Made by a program: the position numbers and the translations under genes. Below the pieces are notes generated by a model. It had not been told where the DNA came from. It saw only the letters and a list, made by a program, of their open reading frames with translations, and searched no databases. DNA of 64,000 bases from Felis catus (taxonomy: Eukaryota), in NCBI RefSeq assembly GCF_018350175.1, contig NC_058376.1, positions 73,036,001 to 73,100,000 on the forward strand. Reading direction: 5' to 3'. Each line of letters opens with the position of its first letter. The stretch's first letter is position 1. Below are positions 341-60,255 of this stretch, piece after piece.

Positions 341-403
341 GAGGCTGCCTGACAAACTGCAGATGAGTACCTTCAGGTCCCGGGAGAAAAGGGCTGTGTT
401 GGC
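341..403 (+). pseudogene. ACADVL-like pseudo-exon equivalent to exon 13
   Basis: ag at 339-340, then 63 nt reading EAA*QTADEYLQVPGEKGCVG vs [27 protein letters not shown] (21 aa each). TGA at 350-352 replaces Trp. No GT donor; MER20 starts ~7 nt later. Confidence 0.85.
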
Positions 404-409
404 ACTTCT

Positions 410-606
410 CAGTGGAAGAAGTGAAGGTTTTACCCCCAAGGGACATTTGGCAATGTCTAGAGAATTTTTGATTGTCATGATTGGGGGCTGCTACTGGTGG
501 TTAGAGGCCAGAGATGATGCTCAACACCCTACAATACCCAGGGCATTTTCCCACAATAGAGTTATCTGATCCAAAATGTCAATAGTGCCTCTAGTGAGAA
601 ACCCTG
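410..606 (+). mobile_element. MER20 (hAT-Charlie) DNA transposon
   Basis: cagtgg...gggacatttggcaatgtctagaga...ggctgctactgg...ccaaaatgtcaatagtgcc...gagaaaccctg matches the MER20 consensus layout end to end. Confidence 0.85.
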
Positions 607-1469
607 GGTTACATGACAGGGAGAGGGATGAGTTTCCTCCACTGGATGTGTGGAAATAATGTGGTTATTTTAATCTAATATTTAGGAAGAGCCATCTCTA
701 TACTTTAGAGTTTCCCTTGAAGTAAAGCTTCCTCCTCTACCCCAGCCCTACCCCACCCCACCCTCATGTCCTTCGCATCTGCCCCCCCTCTTGTCAGGGG
801 AAGACAAGATGCTCAAAAGAAACTGCTGTATAAGATTGTGCGAGTGTCCATGTGCACGTGTCTTTGCATGTAGGAGAAACAGAAACAGACTGAGAAACAG
901 AAAAAAAGCACCCGGAGATGGCGAGAGAGATGTGCAGAGAAAATTAGCTAGTAAGGGAGTCAGGGAAAAGGGTAGATGGAAAGAGAGAGAGAAAAAAAAC
1001 ACAGAGGGGTGACACCTAACTAAATTTTTTTTTTCAACAAACACCATGGAAATTCAGTGATAACAAGTGAAGGTCCCTGTGTTCTCCAAGCCCACAATCT
1101 CCAAGAGACAGAGGCCAGCAGCTGTAATACCTGTGGAAAGTGGAAAGCTCACCATAAAATCATAAAGCTGGAGGGAACACGGAGAAGAGGCTGACATTCT
1201 GCAGGGTGGGGGAGGTGCAGGGCAGAGGGAGGTGTGCAGAGTGGGGGGCGGTGACCATCCAGGTGAACGGGGAGGAGGAGCATTTTGTCAGGTGAACAGA
1301 AGAAGTGAGGATTCTTGGGAGGTGGGTTTGGGGAACAGTAGAGGATTGGGAGGTGAGGACGGAGCAGCTGTGACTCCCCCATAGTCCCCCAGAGCAGGGT
1401 TAGACCTTGATTCCATGCTTGAAGTCGTACACATGGAGGATGCCCAGAGTTTCTTGTGTAATATTTCCT

Positions 1470-1775
1470 CACCTCTTTCAACTGTTACTCAAGTCTTACT
1501 TTATCAGTGAGGCCTACCCTGGACAATTTCAACCTACCTTCCTGGTATTCCCAGCCCCCTTATCTGTCTCTATCTATGGAACTCGTTATTTCATAACATA
1601 CTTTATAATTAATAATTTCGTGTTTGTATTCCTTGACTAGCATATAAGCTTTGTGAGAGCGGGGATTTCCTTTTGTTTACTCAAAAGAAATAGTGGCACT
1701 CTAGAATAGTGCCACATGAGTAGAAAGTGCTCAATAAATATTTGTTGAGTGAAAGAATGAATGAATGAACAAACA
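1470..1775 (+). mobile_element. L2 3' end fragment
   Basis: Typical L2 tail ...gtgctcaataaatatttgttgagtgaaagaatgaatgaatga. Confidence 0.7.
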
Positions 1776-1851
1776 AACATGGCATTGCGAGGCCTTCCCC
1801 CATCGGCCGGCCCCTTCCCAGAACTTTACGTTTCTGACAGCTGCTCCTCAG

Positions 1852-2438
1852 ATGTAGTCATTCTCTAACATTGCATAACAAATTACCACAAACTTGGGGG
1901 TTCAAAACAACACACGTGTCTTATCTCACAGTTTCTATGGGTCAGACGTCCAGGCACAGCTTACTGGGTGTTCTGTTTAGGATCTCACAAGGCTGCCAGC
2001 TAAGTGGCTCAAAGTGGCTTTCTGGGGAGGTGTGGGGGTGGGGGGCTGTTTACAAGCTCCCTCAGATTGCTAGCAGAGTTCAGGTCCTGTGGCTGTGTGA
2101 CCAAGGGCTTCGGTTTCTTGGTGGTTGTTGGCTGGAGGCTGCCCTCAGTGCCTGGAGCCCACCCGCCATTCCTTGCCATATGTGATTCCCCAACATGGCC
2201 ACTCGCTGCCTCAAAGCCAGCAGAAGAGATAGACACTCTAACAAGGTGGGCACTACAATTTTATGTAACGCAGTCATGTAATCACATACACGTAATCACC
2301 CATATCCTCTCTCCTTTGCCATTGATGAGCAGCAAGTCATGGGTCCCACCCATGCTCAGGAGGGGATCACACAAGGATGTGAACACCAGGGGTTGGGCTC
2401 ATGACCGTAGGGACCATTTTAAGAGAGAGTCCACCACA
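1852..2438 (-). mobile_element. MLT1-type (ERVL-MaLR) solo LTR
   Basis: cataacaaattaccacaaact...ttatctcacagtttctatgggtcag...ccaccaca, MaLR LTR in reverse orientation. Confidence 0.75.
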
Positions 2439-2941
2439 GGAGGTGACAGCTGGAGGTGAGGCTTCTCCTTTGAACACAGTCCCTTGGTTTGATACACAAC
2501 TCAACCTCTGTACCGTGTTAGAGTTCTTTATGTATGTGTCTGCCTCTCCCACAAGTTTGGGGGCAGGGACAGCTCTTGCTCTTGTCTTTAGAGTCCGTTT
2601 CTAACACAGAGCCTGGCACATAAGTCGTCAGTTTGGGATGAATGGGCAGAAGGATGGGTGGATGGATGGTGGATGGATTTATGATTGGAAAAATGGAAGG
2701 AAGGCAGAAAAGAAGGAAAATGTGGTAACAAAACAAGGGTAAAGGCAAACTACCTGGCTAGAAAGAACGTGGCCCTCACCTGAGAGAGGACCACTCGCTG
2801 TGAAGTAAGACGTGAGCACTAAGTTATGGATCTGCTCCCAGTCCCAGCCTTGTTCCTGGAGCTGCCCCTTGGAGTCTTTCTGTCAGGTGTGCCAAAAAGG
2901 CAGGCGGTTCCTCTCTCCCAGATCTTCTGTTTTCTCCTCAG

Positions 2942-3041
2942 GAAATAAGAGTGCAGAAAATCATGAGGGATGTCCAAATGTTCCAAGTATGAAGGCACCA
3001 ATGAAATCCTGCAGTTCTTTGTGACTTTGGCAGATCTGGAG
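2942..3041 (+). pseudogene. ACADVL-like pseudo-exon equivalent to exon 14 (catalytic Glu exon)
   Basis: Pyrimidine tract + cag acceptor (ag 2940-2941) and gtaatt donor (3042). 100 nt = 102 minus a 2-nt deletion near 2987; reads EIRVQKIMRDVQMFQ(v)YEGTNEILQFFVTLADLE vs [34 protein letters not shown]. Confidence 0.92.
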
Positions 3042-3721
3042 GTAATTTCCTAAGAAATAAGCGGAGGGAAGAAAGCATTCCTTTGTAATCCTCTCCAAGG
3101 CTCTTGGCAAAGGCTTTTGATAACCAAGTTCTTTGTGCAATAAACACCGAGTTTTGAGCGAAACTGTTTTGAGTTCTTGCTGCAGTGTGGGATAGTGAAT
3201 CCAGGCTGTTCCAGGCCTTGGCCTCTGAGGCCCAGATGGAAGCCAGGACACAGGCAGTCCGAGTGCTGGAGGTGGGATCTCAGGCTGCCCTTTCTACGTG
3301 GGAACCGTGGGAAGGCAACAGTTGGGCAGACTTCACTCATGAGGCTTAGTGTGTTTTCCACCCAGTAAGGCCTCATGGGCAGAAAGATTCTGACATTTTT
3401 TTTCTGGCTGCGTGTTTTAGACTGGGTGACCTTGGGTTAAACCTTTACATGTGCATCATTTTCCCCCCATTTTGCTTGAGTTTTTAGGATTTATTTTTCT
3501 CACTTGTTCCATGACAGGTAATCTACTTTATGTCAGATGAAGGCCATTAATAGTCAAGGTGGATGAATTGTGACAAGGTCACACTGGAGACCATGATATT
3601 TCTGTCTTTGTTAATTAGGGCCAGACTATAAGCCAGAGGAACTAGTGTTTTTAAAGGTGACAACTAGGCATTTGTATGGGTTCGTGTTTATAAAAACCTT
3701 TGTTTTTTTGTGAATCTGTAA

Positions 3722-3807
3722 AATGCTTGGTGCTTAGTCTCCTGGGGAGTAGACGAGGTGCAGAATCTCTGGATATTCTGACCATGAAGAGAACATCAGA
3801 TTCCAGG
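3722..3807 (+). pseudogene. ACADVL-like pseudo-exon equivalent to exon 15 (tentative)
   Basis: T-rich tract ending in AA instead of AG (3720-3721); strong gtaagt donor at 3808; 86 nt, phase 0 to 2 as in the 98-nt ACADVL exon 15. NAWCLVSWGVDEVQNLW is only weakly similar; two in-frame TGA. Confidence 0.5.
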
Positions 3808-4276
3808 GTAAGTTACTAACTTTCAAATAAAAATTTTGCTTTGGATTTCTCTTCCTGTATTTTCTTTATAACATACCAGCATGCCAGCACCAAGCTAAAG
3901 CAGCTTAAAGCAAACCCGGAGAAACCAATGAATAACAATGGGATTTTATTTACTGAGATTTCCCTGAGAGCAAAACAGTCAAGAAGAACTTGGAATTTCC
4001 AAAACACAGCATTCATCCTTGTTTTGAAAGCAATAGCTTCGTTTGATAAGAAGGAAGCTTTAATCTGCTCCTCACCACCTTGGCTCATCTCCTCACTTTT
4101 AGTTGGAGTTCTTCATCTAATCTGTAGAATTCCAAACTATGTTCCTCTGGATCCAAAACCAGTAGCTAGACCTGGAACCACCCTGAGAAACATTAGAAGA
4201 CCCACCAGTTCCCCACTGGGGCCCCTGTATCCTGAGTCCACACTTCAGGCCCCAACTTTTAAAAGCTGACTTTGCA

Positions 4277-4404
4277 GGATGCCTGGGTGGGTCAGTTCGT
4301 TAAGCATCCGACTTCTGATTTCGGCTAAGACATGATATCACAGTTCTTGGGTTTGAGCCCTGCATCAGGCTCTGTGCTGATGCTGATCGCAGAGCCTTCT
4401 TGGG

Positions 4405-4450
<46 letters not shown>

Positions 4451-4521
4451 CCCCCCTCCCCCACCTGTGCACGGGCTCACTCTCTCTCAAATAAATAAAT
4501 AAACATAAAAAAATTTTTTTT
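4277..4521 (+). mobile_element. Can-SINE with (CT)n and 16-bp TSD
   Basis: tRNA-like head, CT tract, A-rich tail; TSD aaaagctgactttgca (4261-4276) / aaaagctgattttgca (4522-4537). Confidence 0.93.
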
Positions 4522-4789
4522 AAAAGCTGATTTTGCACAGGTGGAAAGCTTTTGCCTAAAAGCATCAATAACTATCGGTTCTCTCGCTTGGCACGCAGCA
4601 CTTTGCATGGCACTATAAAGGAACGCAAAAGGAATATAGTCATAGTACTTACACTCTGGTGACAGACATGAATTATTCTAGGGTCACCAGAAACCCTTGG
4701 CCAGGGAACTGACCTTGACTGGGAGCAGTTCCAACTCAGGTAGCACCTGTGCTCATAACCTCTCTGAGTGCTTCATCTTGGATTCCCAG

Positions 4790-4859
4790 GCAACATCAGA
4801 GAAAATGCAGAGCCATCACCTGGCTCATTTACCCAGCATGGGCTCGTCTAGCAGGTTTT
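4790..4859 (+). pseudogene. ACADVL-like pseudo-exon equivalent to exon 16
   Basis: ttcccag acceptor (ends 4789), phase-2 start; ITWLIYPAWARLAGF aligns to LSGLVHPELSRSGEL; ~70 nt vs 73; donor degenerate (ctgtgt). Confidence 0.65.
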
Positions 4860-4964
4860 CTGTGTAGGGAATACATACCAGTTGTTTGTCCTGAGCACAA
4901 CCTGCATGTTCTCAGGGTCCATCTTTATCCCAACCCTTCACCTGACTCCTATCTTGAGTAAGGA

Positions 4965-5185
4965 TTTTTTTTTTTTTAATTTTCTTGACATGTATTTATT
5001 TTTGAGAGAGAGAGAGAGCAGGAGCAGGGGAGGAGCAGAGAGAGAGGGAGACACAGAATCCGAAGCAGGCTCCAGGCTCTGAGCTGTCAGCACAGAGCCC
5101 GATGTGGGGCTTGAACTCACGGAGCGTGAGATCGTGACCTGAGCTGAAGTCGGACGCTTAACCGACTGAGCCACCCAGGTGCCCC
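4965..5185 (-). mobile_element. Can-SINE (SINEC_Fc-like)
   Basis: Full-length reverse SINE flanked by TSD ttgagtaagg. Confidence 0.93.
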
Positions 5186-5833
5186 TTGAGTAAGGTTTTT
5201 GATGGCACAGCTTGGGCTCACTCTCAATAAATCATTCTTAATGGTGTCTGTTAGAATGAAAGACTTGCTTTCCATGGATTTCCCCCTTTCAACATCAGAA
5301 CAAAAGGAAAGAAAAAGATAAACTCAACATCTCCCAATCTCCCTCTGCATCTTTATGATCATCTCTTTCCTCTTGAACATGGGTCTCTCTGACTGCCAAC
5401 TTTCCATCTCTACTCCTATTTCCTCTTAAGAAATGTAACCTCTATGGAGTAGCTTCCAAATGCATGAAAACTTCTAACAAAAACTGCTTTCTTAACGTGT
5501 CAATATCCTTTTGACTTTCTAATATTTGAAGATGCATTTTGATACAAGACCTTTTCTGTCTATCTTATCCGGAATAGGTCCTACCCTCCTATCCACCCTG
5601 GCCCATTTTTCTCTATGTACACAACCCATTCATTCCCTCCCCGCCCCCCCGCCCCCAGTTTCATTTGTTTACTTGATTTTTTGTTCTGTTCCCCGACCCC
5701 CCGCCCCGACCCTGCCCTGTTGGGCTGTAAAGCTTCATGTGAGCAGAGACCATGTCTGTTCTGCTCTCCACTGTAACACTAGCACCTAGCAGAGCACCTG
5801 CCATTTAGGAGAATCTCATTAAAATCTTTGTTG

Positions 5834-5937
5834 GGGGTGCCTGGGTGGCTCAGTTGGTTGAACGCTGACTTCGGCTGTGCTGACAGCTCAGAGCCTGGAG
5901 CCTGCTTCGGAGTCTCCCTCTCTGCCCCTCCCCCACT
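5834..5937 (+). mobile_element. Can-SINE, internally deleted, running into a gap
   Basis: ggggtgcctgggtggctcag head; tgctgacagctcagagcctggagcctgc core. Confidence 0.8.
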
Positions 5938-6097
5938 NNNNNNNNNNNNNNNNNNNNNNNNNNNNNNNNNNNNNNNNNNNNNNNNNNNNNNNNNNNNNNN
6001 NNNNNNNNNNNNNNNNNNNNNNNNNNNNNNNNNNNNNNNNNNNNNNNNNNNNNNNNNNNNNNNNNNNNNNNNNNNNNNNNNNNNNNNNNNNNNNNNN
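5938..6097. other. Assembly gap (N run); others at 9688-9833, 26242-26381 and 44485-44676
   Basis: N characters in the sequence. Confidence 1.
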
Positions 6098-6099
6098 AT

Positions 6100-6520
6100 A
6101 CATCATGGTTTCCTTGGCTAATTAAAAGCGAATGGCAGGGTACAGCAGAGTTGAGGGTCAGCAAGACCAGATGTTTCAGAACCGGATCTTGGGAGAACAG
6201 AGCAGAGTGCAAAGGAGCTGGTAGGGCTGACGAGTCAAATAAATGTGCCTGTCATCCTGGAGGTAAATGTCCATAGCTGGCCCAGGAAACAGAGGAGCCG
6301 AGGGAAGATCCAGGGACGGTGGCACTCGCGTGCCTGATCATGGCTTCATGACAACGAGGCAGGCCACTAAATGACAAGGTGTGTGAACTACAAAATGGCT
6401 GCTGCTTCATGTTTAGCCTCCAAATCTAACGTGAGAATCCCTCTTGCGCCCTAGCCTAACCAAAAACATACAGGAAAGGAAAATGTGGTTCAGCCTACCC
6501 AAGTGGACACAATGCTGTCA
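6100..6520 (-). mobile_element. MLT2-like (ERVL) LTR fragment
   Basis: ctaaccaaaaacatacaggaaagg...gttcagcctacccaagtggacaca resembles a reverse MLT2 terminus. Confidence 0.55.
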
Positions 6521-7654
6521 CTACAGTCAGCACCTACTATTTATTGCGTGCATGAATGAATGCAATAAATTTAGCATTTATTGCATGCATAAATGAATGG
6601 ACAAACTCTCATGGCAGCAAGAGGCATTTGGCCACCTGCTCTCACCAGAATGAGAGCCCCATGATGGATGGGATTTTTGTGTTTCATTCATTGTTGTATT
6701 CCCAAACACCTAGAGTGGCACCTTGCCTGTGTACATGCTTAATAAAATTTGTGGAACGAATACTGAATGGATCTGGCCCAAAGTCAAAGGAACCTGTGTG
6801 GAGTCATTAGAAAACACAACCAAATGAAAACTTTTCTATGCTGCAGCATGTGGGAAATCATGAGGAGCCATTTTATACATTTAGCATAAAGGAGCATAAA
6901 ATGGAACAAAGGAAAAAGCGTATTTCCTTCTCTCACAATGTGTCCAAGGGGAGCAAAATATAGAAGCATTTCAGTGACAGCAGGGCAAATATCGTAAATA
7001 ATGAGTTAATTACAGAGAAGCCTGGCTACTGAAAGCCAAGCATCCTTGGGGGAAAAGAAGGGAGAGGAAGTTAGAAGCATTTTCTTCACAACCTTCCTCA
7101 CAGTCCATGTGGGGTGTGACACAGCAGAGTAAATCCTCCAGGGGCCTTGCCAGGCTGTGAAACACTGACAGGCACAGATACCCCCAGGAACAGTCCCATG
7201 CATTTAAAGCCAGGCTACACCCTGCGGTAGGTAGTTTGAAAGGCCAACCTCCCATGACTTGGTCCCGGGAGGGCTCAAGGTTAGCTAACTCAAATGTTCT
7301 CTATCAGAAGAATAGAGCTTCTCTATCAGAAGGCCTTGCATGAACTGATGTAACTGAGGCGTGTCTCTCACCTTTTGGTCTCCCTCCCCCTCCACAAGAT
7401 CTCAGTTTTGTGTTAAGACATGTCTGGCTCTCTACCTCTGCAACTCTGTCTATATGTCAGAAATAGTATTAACCGTGGTTCTCTCTGACCACTGGGATTA
7501 CTGCTTCTATATGCCTTTCTCCTTTGTGCTCTCCTGTGTTTTCCACATTTTTTGCATTAGATATGAATTACTTCTATAATCACACATACGAAAAACAGTT
7601 ACAAAAGTACTTTAAAGTATTACAACTAAGAGTGTAGGAAAATTTTTTTGTATC

Positions 7655-8072
7655 TTTTAAAAAATTTTTTTTTCAACATTTATTTATTTTTGAGAGACAG
7701 AGCGTGAGTGGGAGAAGGGCAGAGAGAGGGGAGACGCAGAACCCAAAGCAGGCTCCGGGCTCTGAGCTGTCAGCACAGAGCCTGACGCGGGGCTCGAACC
7801 CACAAACCGTGAGATCATGACCTGAGCTGAAGTCAGACACTCAACTGACTAGCCACCCAGGCGCCCTACTATTTTTTGTATTTTTAAAAACATTTTTTTT
7901 TCTTAAGTTTATTTATCTTTGAAGGGGGTGGGTTCAGAGAGAGAATCCCAAGCAGATTCCACACGGTCAGTGAAGAGCCCGATGCGGGGCTTGAGCTCAC
8001 GAACATGAGATCATGACCTGAGCTGAAATCAAAGAGTCGGACATTTAGCCAACTGAGCCACCCAGGCACCCC
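7655..8072 (-). mobile_element. Two tandem Can-SINEs (7655-7866 and 7881-8072)
   Basis: Two reverse SINE bodies ending in ccacccaggcgccc and ccacccaggcacccc. Confidence 0.92.
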
Positions 8073-9082
8073 ATGTTTTGTAAGTTTTTAAGATAAATAT
8101 TGGCAGCATCTTACATCTCGACAAGAGCAACTTAAATAGATGCTACTTCCAAGCTACAGTATCACGGGTGAGATACCTGTGGTATATCAACAACATGGTA
8201 CTTGCATGTGGAGGCATAGCACCCTGGGGAAGTTTATCATCAAGGGTTGTTGGTTTTCAACTTGAATTGGACTTCCTTTGATTTTTATACTTTATATAAA
8301 CCGAAAGACGATGTACTCTATTTGTCTGCAAAAATGCAATAAAAAATTAAAACAAAAGGAGTTACCTTTCCATTTATTACGTGTAGTATCTGCAGACTTG
8401 TTTGGCTAAGAATTAAAGAAAAGATGTCAAGACTGAGCCACCCAGGCACCCCGTCACTAAAATTCTAATGCTGGTTTTGATCTGACCAGTAGAGGTTTAC
8501 CATTGCAAAGGTGCCTTTCTCCTGGAGTCCAAGGGCCCAAGCTCTCAGCCACAATGCTTAAGCGTGTATCTGTGATAAACTCTTCCTCTCAAATAATCAG
8601 TCCTGCAATTCGGAAGAAGAATCAACTAGATGATTTGGATCCTGCAAATAAACTCACCTATGGAATCATGCAATGTTCCCATTCTCAATGAGTTATTTTG
8701 TTCTGGAGAGACGACTTTTATATTCACCGAATGTCCATTAGACTGAGTGCTAAACAAGCTCATGGGAGTAAGACCATGGGAATGACACAGAGATGAAATT
8801 CTTCTGGTCTCAAAACACTCTGTAAGAACAAGATGCACTTGGAGTCTGACTCCATCTCTCCTGTCTGGGGGTAGGTTACTACAGTTCATCAAGAAAACTG
8901 GAATTTGCAAAATCTCCAAATCCTTCCTTGGGGAATCTTTGCCTCTTGGCTTCCTTACAGAGCTCCTTTGTGCCCATAAGACAGGTTTAATAATCACACT
9001 CTGGATTGCACAACTATTATCACTCCCATCAGAATAATACAGGGCAGAAAAATAGAACCAGTGTTTTGCATTTCCTTTTCAG

Positions 9083-9145
9083 ATAAACAGTTTCATCTGA
9101 AGAGAAGAGCAGATGCCATTTGCCCATGACTATAGTCCTATCTTG
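9083..9145 (+). pseudogene. ACADVL-like pseudo-exon equivalent to exon 18
   Basis: tttccttttcag acceptor, phase-1 start; KQFHLKRRADAI..MTIVLS vs [23 protein letters not shown]; 63 nt = 73 minus 10 (frameshift); phase-2 end at a gt donor (9146). Confidence 0.85.
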
Positions 9146-9833
9146 GTGCTGGGGCTGAAGGGTCTGCAGCAAACAATTTTACAATAGAAGCATCTTCCTC
9201 TGCTGTTCCCTCCAAATGCCTTCCGTCCTCACACCTGTCTCTCTGGCTTTCCTCCTCCATGGTGACTGCATATAGAAGAGGAATAGGGTCCCAATGATTC
9301 TTGGTGCTTGCAAGGGGGGCAACAAGTTCTGGTGAGAGCCGATGGCTTAGAGGCTAGAAAGCAGCCAGGGGACTTCAAACATTTAAAAGATGCAAGCAGG
9401 TTAAGTAGGGATCCAGGGATTTTTAATGGTTCCCAAACTAATCTGATGCTCCGCTAACTTCACTTTCTGATTCCCCTAAACTGCCTGGGGTCCTGTCTTC
9501 TTCCCATGACCAAACCACAGTCATAGAATGTTAAAGTATCAAGAAAGAAAATGAAACGTTGATCTAGGCAGAAAAAGTGCCTTGCCAAGGTCAGCTGCAA
9601 GTTCATGACAAAGCTGGGTTTAGAACCCTCCTGACTTGATTCACAGACCTGTGCTCTTTCCAGAAGCCTAAGAAGAAGATTCTTTACNNNNNNNNNNNNN
9701 NNNNNNNNNNNNNNNNNNNNNNNNNNNNNNNNNNNNNNNNNNNNNNNNNNNNNNNNNNNNNNNNNNNNNNNNNNNNNNNNNNNNNNNNNNNNNNNNNNNN
9801 NNNNNNNNNNNNNNNNNNNNNNNNNNNNNNNNN

Positions 9834-10573
9834 ATCGCACTACTGGGGATTTACCCAAAGAATACAAAAACACTAATTCAAAGGGATACATAGACTTGTT
9901 TATTTATAGCAGCATTATTAGCCAAAATGGAAGCAGCCCAAGTACCCATCAATTCATGAATGGATAAAGAAGATGTGGTATATATACCAAATGGAATATT
10001 ATTCAGCCATAAAAAGAATGAAATATCACCATTTGCAATGACCTGGATGGAGTTAGAGAGTATGAAATAAGTCAGAGAAAGACAACTAGCATATGATTTC
10101 ACTCATATGTGTAATTTAAGAAACAAAAGAAGCAAAGGGAAAAAAAGAGAGAGAGAGGCAAACCAAGAAACAGACTCTTAATTATGGAGAACAAACTGAT
10201 GGTTACCAGAGGGGAAGGGGTGGAGGGATAGGACAGATAGGGATGGAGATTAAAAAGAGCACTTGTCATGCTGTAGGGTGATATAGGGAATTGTTGAATC
10301 ATGATATTATACACCTGAAACTAACATGACACTGTAGTTAATGAACTAGAATTAAAATTAAACTAAAGGGGCACCTGGGTGGCTCAGTCACAATCTCACA
10401 GTTTGTGAGTTCGAGCCCCACGTCTGTGCTGTCAGCACAGAGCCTGGAGCCTGCTTCGGATTCTGTGTCTCCCTCTCTCTCTGTCCCTCCCCTGTTCGCA
10501 CTCTGTCTTGCTCTCTCTCAAAAAAAAAAAATAAATAAAAACATTAAAAAAATTAAACTGAAAAAAAAAAAAA
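9834..10573 (+). mobile_element. L1 3' end (9834-~10365) followed by a Can-SINE (10368-10573)
   Basis: L1 ORF2 end/3' UTR motifs (atggaatattattcagccataaaaaagaatgaaat, catttgcaatgacctggatggag); SINE head ggggcacctgggtggctcag. Confidence 0.88.
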
Positions 10574-11242
10574 GGATTCTGTAACTGAGCTGTTATGGAT
10601 ATTCTCACAGATTGAGTCCCTGGGTGTAAATAATAATGGCCTGTCAAGATATCAACACTGAAATAAGACAAACTAGAATAAACCTTAGTTGTGTATAGCA
10701 TCATTGAAAGGAGAGTCCAAACTCTCTCAAGCCCAAGAGTCTCGGGGGATCTGAGTAGGATCTAGTAACACAGTGGATATGTTCAGTCACGTGAATTCTC
10801 CCTTCCCTCTTCTGTCCACCCAGTGACCATCTGCAGTATGAATCATCCCTAACACCATTTAGCTCCAGGTGCCTGGGAGAAAGGAAGGGGCCTTGAAAAG
10901 CACACAAGTTAACCAGCTCTCTAGGTGCACATAAGACCACATACGTGAGAAACAGTTGCAGGCCCAAAGACAGCCTCCTGATACTCAAACCCATGCCTAC
11001 GCCCATAGATCCTGCTGAGGTCTAAGATTTGGCAGCGATCTGGTTATCTGGCTCACCAGAATGGGTAGCAGTTAAGCTTCATATTTCAAGCTGGAATGTT
11101 CACTATGCCACTTGAATTATTCTATTTGGCAGTCTACACTGCAGGACTCCTAATGTAGAACTGGAAAGTCCTCTCCACTTATCTGATTTTCAAGTCTAAA
11201 GTCCTGTGTGTGTCCCTCTGTTCCACAGGATGTCCTAATGTA

Positions 11243-11318
11243 GCCATTTATCTCCTGGACCAGAGATGTGCTTCCTCCCATCCCAACAAGGATGCTGTGG
11301 GAGGCCTGGTACAGTGAC
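11243..11318 (+). pseudogene. ACADVL-like pseudo-exon equivalent to exon 19
   Basis: AIYLLDQRCASSHPNK / MLWEAWYSD (one frameshift) vs [25 protein letters not shown]; ~76 nt as expected; donor appears mutated (ctaggc at 11319); 5' boundary uncertain. Confidence 0.7.
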
Positions 11319-11757
11319 CTAGGCTGGACTGACCTCGCCACCCCATCTGCTCACAGGGACAGTGCTTCCTTTGTACCATTGTTTGTGGGGTTTTTTTTTT
11401 TTTTTTTGGTGTTTTTTTTTTTTTGTTTTGTTTTGTTTTTTACTTTTCCTGCTCCTCAGTTTCAAACCCAGTCCCTCAGGGCCTCAGTTGAAGCCAGCCC
11501 TGCCCAAGTACATCCTCACTCCAGAACTTGTAATTATTCCCTAAGCAGGCCCTGACATCTTTTCAAATGTTCCTCCTGAAGTGGGAGGGTCCTGAGAAGT
11601 CCAGTCACTTCCTCTCGAATGGAGACGCTAGCCTCTGGAAAATTCCACAGCCCTGGGCCCTGGTTGGTGGGGAAAAGGGGGCAAGGGGTGAGTTGGGTTG
11701 GTGCCTGAGTCTTTAGGCCATCAGTCAGGTTCTTTTGAGGGAGTTAGGGTGAGTCTC

Positions 11758-11805
11758 CAGGAAGTGAAATTCTCAACGGGGAGTAGTTCCTATGACAACA
11801 GGAAG
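11758..11805. promoter_or_regulatory. Candidate RFX X-box flanked by ETS-like sites
   Basis: GTTCCTATGACAAC at 11786-11799 fits GTHNYYATRRNAAC; caggaagt at 11758 and caggaag at 11799. Motif match only. Confidence 0.35.
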
Positions 11806-12185
11806 ATTGTCTCAGGCTAAACTGTAGAGAAAAAGGCAAAGTATATGTGTTTATCACTTAGGGTGGTGGGGTGGGAACCTCCTTCTTTCTGTACATGAGC
11901 CCCTTAAGTCTCAGAATCACTGGCTCAACAGAGAAAGTCCCTTTAACCAAGACCCAGGGCCAATGCAGCTCTCACTAAGGTTTTGATACCAAGTGTGAGC
12001 CTATGGGTACTTGAACTTTCTCATGTCAAATCAGATGGTGGCCTGAGCTAAGGCATTGCCACTGGAGAGAGAAGGGATGAGACTGAAATTTAGGAGGATG
12101 GATGGAGAGAATGTGGGGACTGAAGATATGTAGGTGTTGAAGGAAAGGGACTCAAAGGTGAAAATATCAAGATATCTACTTCACA

Positions 12186-12310
12186 GGCTTGCTGCAAGGA
12201 GTGGAGTTAACACAGAGGCCCTGCAACAGTATCTGAATGCCATCGGGTCAGTACCTGCGAGCTGCTTTCCTCCTCGTCGTCCTCCTCGTCCCTCTCCATG
12301 TCCATTAAAG
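12186..12310 (+). pseudogene. ACADVL-like pseudo-exon equivalent to terminal exon 20 (only first ~13 codons supported)
   Basis: cttcacag acceptor (ends 12185); with a +1 insertion it reads AAARSGVNTEALQ vs AAARIREGMAALQ with identical spacing; similarity fades afterwards. Confidence 0.6.
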
Positions 12311-13214
12311 GCAGAACTTTCCCACCTGGAAACCTCAGAGTATCCACCCAAGGAGGCTTTGCCACTGGTTCGTGAATCTGAACCTCGTGACTGAAGGCCA
12401 CGGACGTGCCCCTGCCTCTCCTGGTCCCCACCAAACAGATAGAAACAAAAGTGTCTTCTCTCTAGAGCTGCATCGGGAAAACCCTGAAAGCCATTCTCTC
12501 ACAACCAGAATGTTCCCTTTGTTCCTCTGAGACAGAACCAACATCTCTGTGAGGGACAAAGAGGCAGCCTGACTCCTGAGCCGAACAGACGGATGGGCCG
12601 AGTGATGGCTGTTGAGTGGTAGCTGGGGCCGAAGCGCTGAGATTGCAATACTTACTGTGGTTCACATACGACAACGTGCAGGACACCTTATTAAAAACTG
12701 AACACAATCATTTCCAAATTTCAGGTTCATATTCAGCCTCAGACTTCCCCAAACATGCTCATACTGAGCTCTCCTGGGACATCTTCCGGGCCCTTGGGGA
12801 ACCAGACCCGAGGCTGACAACATTGCTGATTCTTTCCCCCACAGATATTTTCACCCCCTCATGTACTCAACAAATATTTACCTATCTTGCGCCGGGCACT
12901 GTGCGGGAAGCTGGGGCTTCAAAGAAATGAAGCCACGTCTCTTCCACATACAGCCTTGTAGGGAAGACAGGTGAAGCCCAGACTGGAATGCTGTGTGATG
13001 CGTGACAGCGAGCTGGTGCAAGCAGGCCTGGGAGCACAGAGGAGGGCCACAGAGCCCCACCAGGGTTTCAGAGAAGACTTCCTGGAGGGCAAGCAAGAGC
13101 TGGCCCAGGGAAGAGGGCAAGCGAGGCTTTCTAGGTAAGGGAGCACCACGCAGGATGGCCCAAGGCAAGCAAGACCATGGCTCCATGGTTCTTACCCTGC
13201 TGTCCACTGAAATC

Positions 13215-25654: not shown

Positions 25655-25777
25655 ATGATGACGGCGCTGCTGCTCTTTTCTGCTCTGGCCAGCCTCTTCA
25701 GTGCCGCAGACGGACAAGCCTTTCACCTTGGGAAATGCCCGACTCCTCCGGTGCAGGAGAATTTTGACGTGCACAAG
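25655..25777 (+). CDS. APOD: Apolipoprotein D, exon 2 (signal peptide + mature N-terminus); exon probably starts at 25635
   Basis: MMTALLLFSALASLFSAADG-QAFHLGKCPTPPVQENFDVHK; 123 nt; donor gt at 25778. Confidence 0.97.
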
Positions 25778-26149
25778 GTGTGGCAAAAGTCTCAACTCCC
25801 GTTTGTTTTGCCTCCCATTTGAATAAGCATCCTCTAGGATTCAGTGTTAGTTTTCTGCTTTGATTGCCACAGCAAGCCTTGGGGTAGGTACTTATCTTAC
25901 TGGGGCATCCCCCAAAGCAGGCTCTGAGACCAAGAACTGGGGAGCAGAGGGTTTTGGGAAGCCGATCCAGGAAGCACTGTGGGCATGTGGGGAAACTGAG
26001 AGAAGGCAGAACGGCAATAAAAGATGGCATTCCTGAACAGTAACACTGTTAACAGAGGGGTTCAGTCCTGCTGGGAATCCTCTGAGGAAACGTGTAGAAT
26101 GTTCCTCGGATCGTCCCACGGAAACGATTTTCCAAAAGCGCTGCATGCA

Positions 26150-27083
26150 CTATTGTACGTTCCCATCAGCCGTGTATATAATACCAATTTCTCCTTATCT
26201 TTGTCGACACTTGCTATTGTCATCCTTTTGGTTGTAATCATNNNNNNNNNNNNNNNNNNNNNNNNNNNNNNNNNNNNNNNNNNNNNNNNNNNNNNNNNNN
26301 NNNNNNNNNNNNNNNNNNNNNNNNNNNNNNNNNNNNNNNNNNNNNNNNNNNNNNNNNNNNNNNNNNNNNNNNNNNNNNNNNATTTTTAAGTTGGGTTACT
26401 TATCTTTTTAATTATTGAGCTCTGAGAGTTCTTTATATGTTCTAGATACAAGTCTCTTATCAGATACATGATTTGAAAATATTTCCCCCCATTCTGTGGA
26501 TTGCTTTTTCACTTTATTAATGTGTCTTTTGAAGCGCAAAAGTTTCCAATATTAACGGAGTCTAGTTTATCTATTTTTCTCCTTTCTTGCTTATACGTTT
26601 GGTATCTAAAACACCATTGCCTAATGCAAGGTTATGATTTTTATTTCTATATTTTCTTATAAGAGGTTTATAGTTTTAATCCTTACATTTAATTTCGTGC
26701 TCCATTTTGAGTTAAGCTTTTTATATAGTGTGATATAGAAGTCCAACTTTATTATTTTGCCAGTGGATATTCAGTTGCCCAGAACTATTTGCTGAGAAGA
26801 CTATTCTTTCCCCATCGAACAGTGTTGGCATCCTTGTTGAAAATCAATTGGACATTTATGTAACAGCTTATTTTTAGACTCTCAATTCTATTTTATTGTT
26901 TTATGTGTCTATCTTTATGCCAGTGCTATACAGTATTGATTACTATAGCTTTGTAGTAAGTTTTGAAATTAGAATATATGACGCCTCCAACTTTATTCTT
27001 CTGGCTATTCTAAGTCCTTTGCATTTCCATATGAATTTTAGGATCTGTTTGTCAATTTAGTGAAGAAGCAGAGTTTTCTTTTG

Positions 27084-27118
<35 letters not shown>

Positions 27119-27545
27119 TAATAGAGAATGCATTGAATCTAGATCTATCTGGAGAATATTGTCATCTTAACAATTTTAAGCCTTCCAATCCCTGAACATA
27201 GGTTATCTTTCCATTTAATTTCTTATTTATTTAGGTCTTATTGAATTTCTTTCAACAATATTTCATAGTTTTCAGAGTATAAGTTTTGTGTTTCTTTGGT
27301 TAAATACTTATTCCTAAGTATTTTATTCTTTTGATGCTATTGTAAATGGAATTTTCATAATTTACAGAGTGTTCATTTTAAGTGTAGAAAGCCATTTGGT
27401 TTCTGTGTATTGATCTTGTATCCCTTAACCTTGCTAGCTTCATTTATTAGTTCTAATAGTTTGTGTGTGTGTGTGGATTCCTTAGGATTTTTTATACACA
27501 AAATCATGTTATCTGGAAATAGAGATAGTTTTACCTCTTCCTTTA
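26150..27545 (-). mobile_element. Old L1M ORF2 fragment (spans a gap)
   Basis: Reverse L1 sequence; ORF 27373-27555 reads KEEVKLSLFPDNMILCIKNPKES, the L1 RT region. Confidence 0.85.
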
Positions 27546-27558
27546 CAGGATTCATTTT

Positions 27559-28511
27559 TTTTTTATTTTATTTTTTATTTTTTAAAATTTACGGGGTGCC
27601 TGGGTGGCTCAGTCAGTTAAGTGTCCAACTTCAGCTCAGGTCATGACCTCACAGTCTGTGAGTTCAAGCCCTGCGTTGGGCTCTGTGCTGACAGCTCGGA
27701 GCCTGGAGCCTGCTTCGGATTCTGTGTCTGCCTCTCTCTCTCTGCCCCTCCCATGCTCATGCTCTGTCTCTCTCTGTCTCAAAAATAAATAAAAACATTT
27801 TAAAAAATTTACATCCAAATTAGTTAGCATATAGTGCAACAATGATTTCAGGAGTAGATTCCTTAGTGCCCCTTACCCGTTTAGCCCATCCCCCCTCCCA
27901 CAACCCCTCCAGTAACCCTCAGTTTGTTCTCCATATTTATGAGTCTCTTCTGTTTTGTCCCCTCCCTGTTTTTATATTATTTTTGTTTCCCTTCCCTTAT
28001 GGTCATCTGTTTTGTCTCTTAAAGTCCTCATATGAGTGAAGTCATAGGATTTTTGTCTTTCTCTGACTAATTTCACTTAGCATAATACCCTTGAGTTCCA
28101 TCCACGTAGTTGCAAATGGCAAGATTTCATTCTTTTTTTTTCATAGGATTTTTGTCTTTCTCTGACTAATTTCACTTAGCATAATACCCTCGAGTTCCAT
28201 CCACGTAGTTGCAAATGGCAAGATTTCATTCTTTTTGATTGCCGAGTAATACTCCATTGTATATATATAGCACATCTTCTTTATCCATTCCTCCATCGAT
28301 GGACATTTGGGCTCTTTCCATACTTTGGCTATTGTTGATAGTGCTGCTGTAAACATGGGGGTACATGTGTCCCTTCGAAACAGCACACCTGTATTCCTTG
28401 GATAAATGCCTAGTAGTGCAATTGCTGGGTCGTAGAGTAGTTCTATTTTTAGTTTTTTGAGGAACCTCCATACTGTTTTCCAGAGTGGCTGCACCAGCTT
28501 GCATTCCCATC
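27559..28511 (-). mobile_element. 5'-truncated carnivore L1 (ORF2 C-terminus + 3' UTR) with a + strand Can-SINE (27593-~27803) in its tail
   Basis: ORF 28141-28530 [24 protein letters not shown]...; TSD caggattcatttt at 27546-27558 and 28512-28524; SINE TSD aaaatttac. Confidence 0.93.
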
Positions 28512-29039
28512 CAGGATTCATTTTAAACATTGCATTCTTCTTATATGGATAGAGAAACTGGGACCCACAAACGTGAAAAAGTTTTCACAAAAATATTGTG
28601 AAATTATAAGGGAGCGTGACATAAAAAGCAATCTGCCACCTTTCAGTTTCCCCTTTTCTAGAAAATCATGCTTCCTCGGTTTTAATTATGGAGCACTGAA
28701 GTCACTTTAACAATAATAGAACCATTTTAAATGCTCTGTATAAAATGGAGTGTGTTTTTGAGAATGCCTATGAAACCAACTGACCTTTAACCGTATTTTT
28801 TGGTGCCTTCAATGAATGTTAATTTCAGTGGTTTTAATTGAAAGATGTGCCTTTAATAAATGAGTGGAAATTTTAGGTCATAAACGTGGGTATATATTTG
28901 AGCAAAGAGCCATGTGACCGAAGCCGTACTGCCACCTGTTTGCAGTACTCTCATTTCCACTTCTCACTTTTTGAAGGTGAGTGCGTCTCTGATTTTCTTT
29001 TGTTGAGTAATACATTTTTAAATTTAAAAATACTTTCAA

Positions 29040-29258
29040 GGGGCGCCTGGGTGGCGCAGTTGGTTAAGCGTCCGACTTCAGCCAGGTCACGATCTCGCCG
29101 TCCGTGAGTTCGAGCCCCGCGTCGGGCTCTGGGCTGATGGCTCAGAGCCTGGAGCCTGTTTCCGATCCTGTGTCTCCCTCTCTCTCTGCCCCTCCCCCGT
29201 TCATGCTCTGTCTCTCTCTGTCCCAAAAATAAATAAACGTTGAAAAAAAAATAAAAAT
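29040..29258 (+). mobile_element. Young SINEC_Fc-type Can-SINE
   Basis: Near-consensus; TSD aaaaatactttcaa. Confidence 0.96.
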
Positions 29259-29464
29259 AAAAATACTTTCAATTAATATTTTGAGTAAGTAAATATGGTC
29301 ACATGGATCAAAATCCTAAAGGTGCCAGAGAACATACAATGAAGCTCTTCTCCTACCCCTTTTCCCCTCCTACCTCAGTTTCTTTCCCCAGTAGTAACCA
29401 GTAAAATCATTTAATTGTGTATCTTTTGGGAGCGAATGTATATGTTCACGAATACATACATAAC

Positions 29465-29944
29465 TGCAGTAGGCAGAACGATGCCCTCACCCTAATGCCT
29501 GCAACCTGTGACTGTGCCACCGTACACGGAAAGGGGGGTTTGCCGATGTGATTAAAGTTATAGACTTGGAGATGGCAGGCATGGCCTGGGTTATCCAGAA
29601 AGGACCAATCAAATCGTTGAAAGCAGAGAACCTTCCCCAACTGTAGTCAGAGAGGTGTGACAATGGAACAAGAATCAGAGAGATGCAATGTGAAAAGACT
29701 TTCACCTGCATTTGCTGGCTCTGAAGATGGAGGAAGGAGTTCACAACCCAAAAAATGCGGGTGGCCTCAACAACTCGGACAAGGCAAGAAGACAGAGTCC
29801 TCTAGAGCCTATAGGAAGGAACACAGCCCTGCCAACACCTTGATTTTAACCAAACTCACTCGATGTACAGACCTGTGAGACCATAAATTTGGGTTGTTTT
29901 AGGCTTCTGGTAAATTGTTACAGCAGCAATAGAAAATGAATATA
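29465..29944 (+). mobile_element. MLT1-type (MaLR) solo LTR within an old L1 fragment
   Basis: tgcagtaggcagaacgatg...gatgtgattaaagtta...gttacagcagcaatagaaaatgaatata. Confidence 0.8.
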
Positions 29945-30040
29945 ATAATCTTTCCTCCCATTTTTACATATACACTATTTTTCACCTAGCTCTTTTTCCA
30001 TTGTATGTATCTTGGAGATAATTGCACAGGACTCCTTAAA

Positions 30041-30252
30041 ATTTTTTTTAACGTTTATTTATTTTTGAGAGACTGAGAGAGAGAGAGAGAGAGAGAGACC
30101 AAGCATGAGCTGGGAAGGGGCAGAGAGAGAGGGAGACACAGAATCCGAAGTAGGCTCCAGGCTCCAGGCTGACAGCACAGAGCCCACAAACCGTGAGATC
30201 ATGACCTGAGGCGAAGTCGGACACTCAACCGACGGAGCCACCCAGGCGCCCC
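30041..30252 (-). mobile_element. Can-SINE
   Basis: Reverse SINE flanked by gactcctt(t)aaaa. Confidence 0.92.
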
Positions 30253-31044
30253 GCATCTGACTCCTTTAAAAGAGGGTGTGTAACATTCCATTATATGGAT
30301 GTGCCATAATTTATTTACCTAGTCCCCTACGAATGCTCAGACTCTAGTTTCCCGTATTTTGTTCTTACAATAGTACCACAACAAATAACCTGACATATGC
30401 ATCATTTCTTTTTCTTATTATCCGGAGGTTACATTTCCAGAAGTGAAATTGCTTTGCTAGATATTGCCAACTTGCCCTCCACGAAGGTTGTAAATTGGAG
30501 CAATCTCCATGCAAGGCGATGCATGGAACTGTGAACATGCCTTTCTCCCCCTCCCCCACAACAATGCGCACTTCTTTAGAGTTGACTCTGTACACGAAGT
30601 TATGAACTGAGACCATACGCCCCGTGGTATCAGTCTTCTAAGTCCTGATCACCTGCCAAAAGTTTTTGTGTCCACCTCCCTGTGCGAGGTCTTATGAGGA
30701 GAATGCAACCAACTCTGGAGTCCCAGTTCCCCACAGTGAATATATCTGACTTGCACACAACTCGAAGATGCCTCGTAGAATCACAAAATGTCTGAGATGG
30801 CACCTTCCATCATCTGGACTCCTCTCTCTCTTTCACAGAGTTTAGAATTTCACATAGATTTTGGCTGGAGGGGCCACTGACAGCATATCTAAATAAAGAG
30901 CACTTTAGGAATAAAATGTGGCATTCAACCAATGCCTGCACATCCGATTCACTTACTCTCATTTGAATCAATATCTTGCTCAGTTGCTGTAAGAACAATG
31001 CAGCCCATTTTGCTTGGTTTCCCCAGGAAAGGGCTCTGCTCTAA

Positions 31045-31242
<198 letters not shown>

Positions 31243-33757
31243 TGAGTGGCTGTGGTTTCAAAAGCAACACAGTCCTGGAGCCAGCCTGCAGAGAGTTGTC
31301 CTGGGGTGACTGGGTGTCCTTGCGATCTCGTTAAGGGGGGTGGTGCAGATGTTGCTGGGTCTGCCCTGCCTGCTCACAGCAGGTCCTAAGATGAAAGTTT
31401 TTGGCAAGCAGAATGGTGGGGACGAGAAGCCACTCATTTATTTGCGTGACCACTTGCTGAGCATCTTTTTGTATTGTGGGCTCCCTTGAGTGTTGTGTAC
31501 TTATTATATGTGTACTCCCTATGAGAGGCACTAGGAACTCAATGGGAATCCAAACTGCAGGGTTCCTGCTCTCATAGCAAAATAGATACTCTGGTAGCAA
31601 AGGATGAGGGGGAGGGGGCACAAGGGGGGTGGGGAGGGGGACCATCTCATCTGATCTCCAAACTAAGAACAAAGCCCTTTCTATATTATCTACTAACAGA
31701 AGACATCCAGCTCTACCTGACTCCTTCCGGGAACTGGGAGCTTATTGCCTTCCATGACAATTTATTTCATCTCCAGACAGCTTTAACTATTAGAAAACTC
31801 CTTTTCTTGTTAAGCAAGAATCAAATACATGGTCACATTCTAGGTTATGAGAACAGGATCGCCTATAGAAGTATAATTTTCTGATACTGAAATACAGATT
31901 TCTATTTGATATGAGAATTCATACTTTAGAAAGCAAACAGAAACTTTAAAAAGCCGCAGAAAGAGCTCCTACCAACCTTCTATCAACAAAGATAAGAGCA
32001 ACAATAAACAATAGTAACAAATACTAAGTATTCCCTAAATGCAAGGCACTATTCTGTATGTGTACGTATATATACATGTGTGTACATATATGTATATATG
32101 TAAATGAATATATATTTATTTAATTCCCATAACAACCCTGAGTACCTACTATTATCAACCCCACACTTATAGATGAGGAAACTGAGGTACAGAGAGGGAA
32201 AGTAATTTGCCCAAGGGCCACACAGCTTGTAAGCAACAAAGCTAAGATTCAAACCCAGGGAGAAGTGAAATGGGGAAGAGAACAGAAGACAAATGGAAGA
32301 AAGGCTGGGGTGAAGGGCTGTCCTTCTTGTTCCCTACAGGACCTGAGAACTGTGCTCAACTCCAAGAAAACAATTATAACCCAGCATGGAAGTTACTCAG
32401 GCTCCGAGAGGCTTTGTGTGGCCATCTTGTTATCCACTAAGCTTTCTGTGAGCCAGAACATAAGTGGGTTGACTCCCTGCCTTCATAAACCATAGAAATA
32501 AAGTTAAGAATCTCAAGGGCCTCTAAAGATAAAAACAGATTATTTTAGAGCCCAGAGAAGGATTGAGATGCAGACCTCCATCTAAAGTTGCAATGACTTC
32601 ATTTCAAATATTTTGTCCCATTCTATGACCAAGAGTCAGACAGTGACGTTGATCTCAAAACCCACAAGATTTTTCCACCTCTCCTTCGGAGCCGGCCAGG
32701 AGTCCTCTTTAACTGTATCTTGAGTATTAGGTTGCTCTGCCTGTAGGGTCACGTTTGTTTAAGATGCAAGGGCACATGGAGAAAGGTTTGCTGGTTCAGG
32801 AGCGTGGTATGGCTTCTCCCTTCAGGAATACTACAGGATGGGCAGAGGCACAGCACAGAGTCTGAGCAAAGTACTCTTAGCCAGTGTCAGAGAATTTGAG
32901 GGCAAAAGCAGCTGGCACGGGCCTGGGAGCCGAAGGGCTCAGGCTTTGGAGTTAGGCTGCCCCATTTCAAATCCTGGTTCTGCCAGTTACTAATGATGTG
33001 ATCTTAGGTTAGTTATGGTAATACTCTAGGTCTCAGTTTGCTCTCAGTAAAGTGACATTAATCATAGAACCTCCCTGCATAGGGCTTTGTGAGCATCAGA
33101 TGAGGTAACGCATGTAAATTGCTTAGAACAGGGTTTGGTGTGTAGAAATTATTTAATTAATACTATGTATTACTATTAATCTGCTGAGACCCTTGAAAAT
33201 ACAAATGTATTTTTCCCATGAACAAATTGTGCATTTACGATCAGAGACTGGTGTTTTGAAAACTGTTCTGGCCAAAACATAAATGATGATGAAAAGCAGG
33301 AAAGTCTGCCAAGAAGAGGCTGGTTTGTTGCTAAGCAACTGCATGCAGATAGAAATGGACCATCTTCCTGTTCTCCCTGCTGAGTTTCAGGTGACAGAGG
33401 AAGGGATGGTTCCCAGCCCTACTTGATGATAAACAGACTATGCATCCAGGAGCATCTGAATACATTTCTCATCCTTCCTTACCTGTTGCTTATTATCTGG
33501 TTTCTGGGACATCCGTCACCACTAACCATAGCCTACTGACTTTCTAACACACGCTGTTGCTCTAACTTTTGTTCTGTGCCCCCTTGAGGACTGATGAACA
33601 GGCTCCTCCTCTGTCAGCTTCCTAGGAAGAGCACTGTGATATGTGAGTGCCCTCCCCTCAGTGCTTCCGTGCCCTCCCCTCAGTGCCTCCTCTCCCCCAG
33701 GTCCACAGAGTCATTGGGAGTTGCTAAAAACTGGAGCCACTCTTTCAAAAGAGTGAA

Positions 33758-33872
33758 AGTATTTCATCCAATCGAAGACCATCACTTTTAAGACACACCA
33801 CCATTTTATATACCACTAAGAAAGAAATGACACTGCGAATTGTAAGGTGGCATTTGTTGCAAGATGTGCATT
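33758..33872. mobile_element. MER104-like Tc2 MITE (a second copy at ~63640-63810)
   Basis: gtatttcatc...cattttatataccactaagaaagaaa... Confidence 0.6.
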
Positions 33873-34452
33873 TCTGCACATTTAATGTCTCTGAGAATCA
33901 CTGAGGTGAGGTTAATATTTCCTCACTGCCTGCTTTTACCTGGCCTATGTTGAAATCTCCCATACTCAGTCAGAAGCTTGCAGGCCTGGATAGGGGTCTC
34001 AGAGCTCAGGTGTATGGATGGCTTTATGGGTCAGATGATGTCATATGATGTCACTGAGGCCCCAAGAGCAAGGAAAGCGTGCAGATCTCCAGACTTCGAG
34101 TAATCATGTCAGTCCTTGTTTTTCCCTTTGGCCCATTCTCATTTTTAAAGAAGTAAATCTTCTTGGTGTATAGGGTTGTTTCGTTTGTGTTCCCTTCTCT
34201 TTTACTCCCTCCCTCTGCAGCCTGAGAGCAGGAAATAGCCTTGTAGGACTCAAAACACAGCACAGAAGTGTTAGGGCCTAACATATCATCCAGTCCTGGA
34301 GCATTTCAGTTATTGCTTCTTATCACCCAGGGCCATCTTCCTCTGCTTGGTCTCAGAGACAGTGACAGAGGAAAGAGCCTCCCTAACCAGAAATCACAAT
34401 CTTGGCCACCCTGATGCTTAGTGGCCTTTCATTGATTTTTGGCTTCCATTGA

Positions 34453-34749
<297 letters not shown>

Positions 34750-37410: not shown

Positions 37411-38195
<785 letters not shown>

Positions 38196-59499: not shown

Positions 59500-60255
<756 letters not shown>

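Follow-up and report, generated by a model that had tools for sequence, protein, structure and literature searches.

From which gene do the broken acyl-CoA dehydrogenase (ACAD) exons upstream of APOD in the cat descend, and when was that gene lost? The question is raised by a window of 64,000 nucleotides of the Felis catus genome, which is the whole stretch that was analysed (NC_058376.1, positions 73,036,001 to 73,100,000 of the forward strand). Judged by eye, the repeats in it resemble carnivore (cat-type) SINEs. A preliminary description of the window had proposed a dead ACAD gene there and had read it as the missing whole-genome-duplication (2R) partner, or ohnolog, of ACADVL, the gene encoding very long-chain acyl-CoA dehydrogenase (VLCAD). 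The + strand carries a broken VLCAD-type gene, of which five exons from the 3' third lie in order between 341 and about 11866 (Table 1). The relic encodes no enzyme; the family to which it belongs and the process that gave rise to it are both of known kinds. It is likely to be the long-dead unitary pseudogene of an ACADVL paralogue that arose before the jawed vertebrates, most plausibly by genome duplication.

The relic exons were located by frameshift-aware profile alignment and are numbered 13, 14, 15, 18 and 20 after what is presumed to be the human ACADVL numbering; a literature search found no paper giving the human exon boundaries. The lengths of relic exons 14 and 15 equal those presumed for human ACADVL. 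As a chain, the five exons scored 169.2, whereas 100 shuffles of the local sequence gave no more than 52.9 and nine control blocks of real DNA no more than 50.4, which bears out the proposed dead gene upstream of APOD. Singly, four of them scored well above the maximum of 22 control blocks (87.0 against 30.9, 42.8 against 23.1, 49.2 against 27.0 and 52.6 against 35.8), and the exon at 341 was the weakest alone (33.8 against 32.3). An AG precedes all five exons, and the GT donor is retained in two of the five. The exons align to the end of the ACAD core and to the C-terminal domain, and the best PDB matches of the exon 14 piece were VLCAD at 17.3 bits and ACAD9 at 13.9 bits. With its introns retained, its frame broken and its codons decaying neutrally, the relic is an unprocessed pseudogene. 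The gene had been thought to end at 12310; its last exon ends about 440 bases earlier, and positions 12100-12400 gave background scores with all eight exon profiles.

The remaining parts of the gene were searched for with the same frameshift-aware profiles. No match above background was found within the window for exons 16, 17 and 19. A stretch at 11229-11320 (+), which follows an AG, was considered as a remnant of exon 19 and rejected, its score of 20 lying within background. Two assembly gaps, at 5938-6097 and 9688-9833, sit in the intervals expected for exons 16/17 and for exon 19, respectively. The 5' two-thirds of the gene had no match anywhere in the window and must therefore lie upstream of it. 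General searches recovered little of the relic. Single exon pieces were not recognised by Pfam, a PDB search with the exon 15 piece gave no match, a direct homolog search with the exon 14 piece gave nothing of use among three candidates, and tblastn against plasmids gave generic short ACADs only. With a bacterial profile of the VLCAD/ACAD9-like type (54 of 120 loci), just two relic exons were recovered.

Table 1. Features of the window, with positions counted from its first nucleotide
Feature	Position	Strand	Remarks
Relic exon 13 equivalent	341..~403	+	in-frame TGA at codon 4; AG acceptor present, donor gone
Relic exon 14 equivalent	2942..3041	+	100 base pairs; carries the catalytic-glutamate motif; 2-base deletion; AG and GT present
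Relic exon 15 equivalent	3880..3977	+	98 base pairs; frame open; AG and GT present; membrane-binding hairpin region
Relic exon 18 equivalent	9083..~9155	+	stops after codon 13; end approximate
Relic exon 20 equivalent, last coding exon	~11729..11866	+	TAA and one frameshift; strongest clade signal
APOD coding exons	25676..38192	+	PDB match E 1.2e-18; start approximate; exons look open
PPP1R2 first coding exon	59945..60067	+	E 7.9e-11; GC-rich stretch near 59.9 kb

Intact relatives of the relic exist. A first profile, composed of one bacterial scaffold and three pieces of the window, was searched against 1.84 billion representatives and returned 150 proteins. In one of these, P0096, 12 of 14 residues agreed with the 9076-9117 piece, and the first two relic exons were matched as well. 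The P0096 model reads through introns at points that coincide with relic exon ends, and the relic is therefore a DNA-level copy and no retrocopy. Two further protein searches (the best 120 of 1851 and the best 120 of 7913, with 8000 candidates scored) gave 173 distinct proteins, which were sorted by best match into three sets; the following counts and absences hold among the matches listed. The VLCAD-like set comprises 48 of the 173, from turtles, crocodilians, squamates and palaeognath birds only. Five proteins, all elasmobranch (P0279, P0280, P0221, P0286 and P0292), form a second-copy set, and the other 120 are nearest to canonical VLCAD, four of them being invertebrate-type outgroups. No mammal was named, and no neognath bird, amphibian, coelacanth or ray-finned fish fell in the VLCAD-like or second-copy sets. 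VLCAD-like and canonical proteins occur together in Pelodiscus (P0281 and P0224), and second-copy and canonical proteins occur together in Scyliorhinus, Pristis and Rhinoraja. The predicted intact VLCAD-like enzyme of some non-eutherian vertebrates was thus found. The list of species proposed for inspection was partly wrong as far as the matches listed go: these came from reptiles, squamates among them, and from palaeognath birds, with second copies from elasmobranchs, and opossum, platypus, chicken, Xenopus, coelacanth and gar contributed none. Coelacanth P0202 was considered as VLCAD-like, since it resembles that clade in exon 18, and was rejected because it grouped with canonical proteins. 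The four neognath proteins placed in the tree are all canonical, and a separate loss of the VLCAD-like gene in neognaths is possible.

Some entries call for separate remark. Several ostrich, turtle and crocodilian entries labelled plain VLCAD belong to the paralogue. In the skink Lerista edwardsae, both P0189 and P0193 are VLCAD-like, and their locus tags are nearly adjacent, which suggests a tandem duplicate or a duplicated assembly. Anopheles P0153 and P0154 are about 1700-1800 residues long; each model contains three copies of VLCAD, and they are probably merged tandem genes.

The VLCAD-like proteins have the features of a working enzyme. P0171, an intact member, carries PF02771, PF02770, PF00441 and PF21343. 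The catalytic glutamate, both channel glycines and the checked flavin adenine dinucleotide (FAD)-site residues are invariant across the set, and their functional roles are taken here to be those of VLCAD. This domain set, including PF21343, and these residues are shared with VLCAD (PDB 7S7G, 3B96, 2UXW and 8CA1). The N-terminus is arginine-rich and resembles, by eye, a mitochondrial presequence. On these grounds, the intact protein would be an active long-chain acyl-CoA dehydrogenase. It differs from VLCAD in forming a separate clade, in being about 62-69% identical to canonical proteins and in the charge of its hairpin, and the gene is dead in Felis catus. In human VLCAD, the region of exon 15 forms the hairpin at the membrane, according to PMC9237092. 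In the VLCAD-like proteins, the turn of this hairpin is often charged where canonical proteins have small or hydrophobic residues, and the mean net charge is +3.5 against +4.7, with similar mean hydrophobicity. This is a hint, and no more, of altered membrane binding. An AlphaFold model (12 rows) had a predicted local distance difference test score of 41.7, was uninformative and was not used. ACAD9 (PDB 8PHE) has the subfamily and the C-terminal domain in common with the VLCAD-like proteins and is much more distant from them: the score of an intact member was 878 bits against VLCAD, compared with 565 against ACAD9. ACAD9 binds ECSIT and VLCAD does not, as stated in PMC10716376.

The relic was then placed among these proteins as a row of 139 residues, with X at the breaks. 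Its identity over the 139 columns was 37-45% to 15 VLCAD-like proteins, 33-37% to 25 canonical proteins and 35% to the five second-copy proteins. It reached 45% with a crocodilian VLCAD-like protein and about 44 of 139 (32%), counted by eye, with human VLCAD. In exon 18, 11 of the first 12 codons match the gharial VLCAD-like protein, a close match to the sauropsid clade. Trees were built from 46 of 55 aligned rows, nine near-redundant rows being removed, and from smaller sets of 22-23 rows. The relic joined the VLCAD-like clade with support of 100/100 in 46 rows, 99/99 in the smaller set and 82/99 under a mixture model. It remained there after removal of exon 18, exon 20 or both, with a Shimodaira-Hasegawa-like approximate likelihood ratio of 99. 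Exons 18 and 20 favoured the VLCAD-like proteins (42.5 against 28.2 and 63.1 against 32.4), and relic exon 20 scored 52.6 with the VLCAD-like profile and 20.9 with the canonical one. Grouping of the relic with amniote ACADVL was rejected by the approximately unbiased test (p-AU 0.028). The relic, though dead, is very probably orthologous to the sauropsid VLCAD-like gene, and it falls in a clade outside canonical ACADVL, as had been predicted.

The age of the duplication is read from the same trees. Sharks, bony fish and tetrapods fall together in the canonical set, from which the VLCAD-like and second-copy proteins are excluded, at 95/99, 91/93 and, with the outgroups removed, 94/97. Because the VLCAD-like proteins lie outside this shark-to-bird ACADVL clade, the duplication probably predates the jawed vertebrates. 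The vertebrate proteins together make up a single clade, apart from insects, nematodes and one further outgroup (99/97 and 100/99). With outgroups and the mixture model, grouping of the VLCAD-like proteins with amniote or with tetrapod canonical proteins was rejected (p-AU 0.023 and 0.033). The elasmobranch second copies form a clade of their own (100/100) and may be either the shark orthologue of the VLCAD-like gene or a third paralogue; their union with the VLCAD-like proteins was not rejected (p-AU 0.065). Polarised columns favoured the second copies with the canonical proteins by 4 to 1, the VLCAD-like proteins retaining the outgroup state at four columns where the other two sets share a derived state. 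A duplication older than the shark and bony vertebrate split supports the 2R proposal, more weakly without outgroups.

The proposed history would run as follows. A second VLCAD gene would have split from ACADVL, at a date that the tree sets before the divergence of sharks and bony vertebrates. Its most likely source would be the whole-genome duplications of vertebrates, by which the DLG4/DVL2 and DLG1/DVL3 regions became a pair; this is suggested by the date and by the presumed position in the paralogon. The gene would have stayed intact in turtles, crocodilians, squamates and palaeognath birds, while the mammalian copy, taken as orthologous by its position, would have died long ago and left an intron-containing unitary pseudogene upstream of APOD. 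The timing of this death can be gauged from the decay of the relic: at 62 positions, at least 90% of 45 vertebrate proteins share a residue, and the relic retains 32 of these residues. In simulation, such retention is reached when neutral substitutions amount to about 0.3-0.35 per site (range about 0.25-0.5, with CpG effects ignored). At presumed mammalian rates, the loss would have occurred well before the carnivores, near or before the placental ancestor.

Several results weigh against this history and give its rivals their footing. One rival is a later segmental duplicate of ACADVL, made on the bony-vertebrate, tetrapod or amniote stem, which moved beside APOD and evolved fast enough to be drawn to the base of the tree, its paralogon position being coincidental. 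All 48 members of the VLCAD-like clade among the matches listed are sauropsid, and their stem is long (0.25-0.30). The best trees join the shark second copies to the canonical proteins (95/94 and 94/91), which leaves the VLCAD-like clade without a non-amniote member. When outgroups were omitted, later origins were not rejected (p-AU 0.08 and 0.10, and 0.11 for a bony-vertebrate origin), and with the relic included in smaller sets the support of the canonical clade dropped to 69/96 and 66/71. Against such a late duplicate stand its rejection with outgroups, the four columns with outgroup states and the persistence of the split when outgroups were removed. This alternative is considered unlikely.

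A second rival accepts the ancient date and ascribes the gene to a small-scale duplication before the jawed vertebrates. The tree gives the date of the split and cannot give its mechanism, and no chordate outgroup (amphioxus or tunicate) or cyclostome brackets it from below. The relic lies upstream of APOD and PPP1R2, all on the same strand, and the gene-neighbourhood evidence consists of this window with these two genes. Human ACADVL is presumed to adjoin DLG4 and DVL2, and APOD to lie near DLG1, BDH1 and ACAP2, in the 3q27-29 and 17p13 paralogon, and this position speaks against a small-scale event; a literature search found no supporting paper for these human and mouse gene orders. The second-copy genes of elasmobranchs lie on sequences of 54-229 Mb; in three of these species, the canonical copy lies on a sequence of 15-36 Mb, as expected of an ohnolog pair. 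In ten turtle species among the matches listed, the VLCAD-like gene lies on sequences of 102-115 Mb. This split suits a pair of ohnologs on a large and a small chromosome and is not synteny. A small-scale origin is quite improbable, and it is likely that the VLCAD-like gene and ACADVL were separated by the vertebrate whole-genome duplications.

A third rival derives the relic from ACADVL by a mammal-specific duplication or retrocopying, followed by decay. Exons 13 and 15 slightly favoured canonical proteins (37.5 against 34.4 and 48.8 against 43.4), and grouping of the relic with all canonical proteins was not rejected (p-AU 0.084). With 24% of the columns covered, the relic forms a very long branch. 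It covers just 6-7 strictly diagnostic columns, of which three are clade-type, one is canonical and the rest are neither. It also falls beside crocodilians, although a mammalian gene is expected outside the sauropsids, and that outside placement was not rejected (p 0.142). Nesting of the relic within mammalian ACADVL or ACAD9, which would have spoken against the ohnolog, was not seen, in trees without mammalian ACADVL and with one poor, partly out-of-frame fragment of ACAD9. The canonical set stands in for mammalian ACADVL because human VLCAD scored 989 bits with a canonical turtle protein and 878 with a VLCAD-like one. The introns and splice sites, the rejected grouping with amniote canonical proteins, the scores of exons 18 and 20 and the lower identity to human VLCAD largely refute a mammal-specific copy, which is very unlikely. 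An origin from an ACAD9 duplicate is scarcely credible, as VLCAD ranks over ACAD9 in the PDB matches, the intact clade scores far higher with VLCAD, and the fragment with which grouping was not rejected (p-AU 0.079) is the poor one.

The VLCAD-like proteins are already present in RefSeq and UniRef as automatic annotations, some named simply VLCAD. Sauropsid entries named 'very long-chain specific acyl-CoA dehydrogenase, mitochondrial-like' are the relic's own clade, from which the relic differs in being broken and mammalian. ACAD6 is presumed to be an alias of ACADVL. Chicken ACAD6L was considered as a VLCAD-like gene and is unsupported, no neognath protein being in the clade among the matches listed. 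In the accessible text of the sources, avian ACAD6L (ENSGALG00000035994) appears as an expression match only (PMC9636429; bioRxiv 10.1101/2024.08.30.610474). The 'elusive' ohnologs, which reptiles kept and both mammals and birds lost, likewise include fast-evolving paralogues with patchy retention, as described in the main text of PMC5901865. They differ in that their definition requires an amphibian or bony-fish orthologue, and none was found for the VLCAD-like gene among the matches listed. ACADVL was not found in that main text or in 12 of its 19 supplementary files. Six supplements of PMC4290089 held no match, four supplements of PMC10208646 did not contain ACADVL, and the supplement rows of PMC13005343 give gene names only. 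The literature searched, outside which lie ohnolog databases and subscription papers, yielded no account of a second VLCAD in vertebrates or of an APOD-side pseudogene. The VLCAD-like paralogue is annotated automatically in reptiles, with no published description found in that literature.

Mammals are regarded as having one VLCAD, whose loss causes disease, and the loss of an ohnolog in mammals is a well-known kind of event. A bolder and rather doubtful picture is that early vertebrates had three VLCAD genes, namely ACADVL, one retained by elasmobranchs and one retained by amniotes. The last, with its recharged hairpin, might have a role of its own in beta-oxidation, binding membranes more loosely or taking another substrate, and it would have been lost independently in mammals and neognaths. 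The second VLCAD, intact in reptiles and palaeognath birds and with its position pinned by a mammalian fossil, would add a member to the repertoire of beta-oxidation enzymes and offer a natural variant of the hairpin and the substrate channel. It also carries a warning, as database labels of VLCAD in ostrich, turtles and crocodilians often denote the paralogue.

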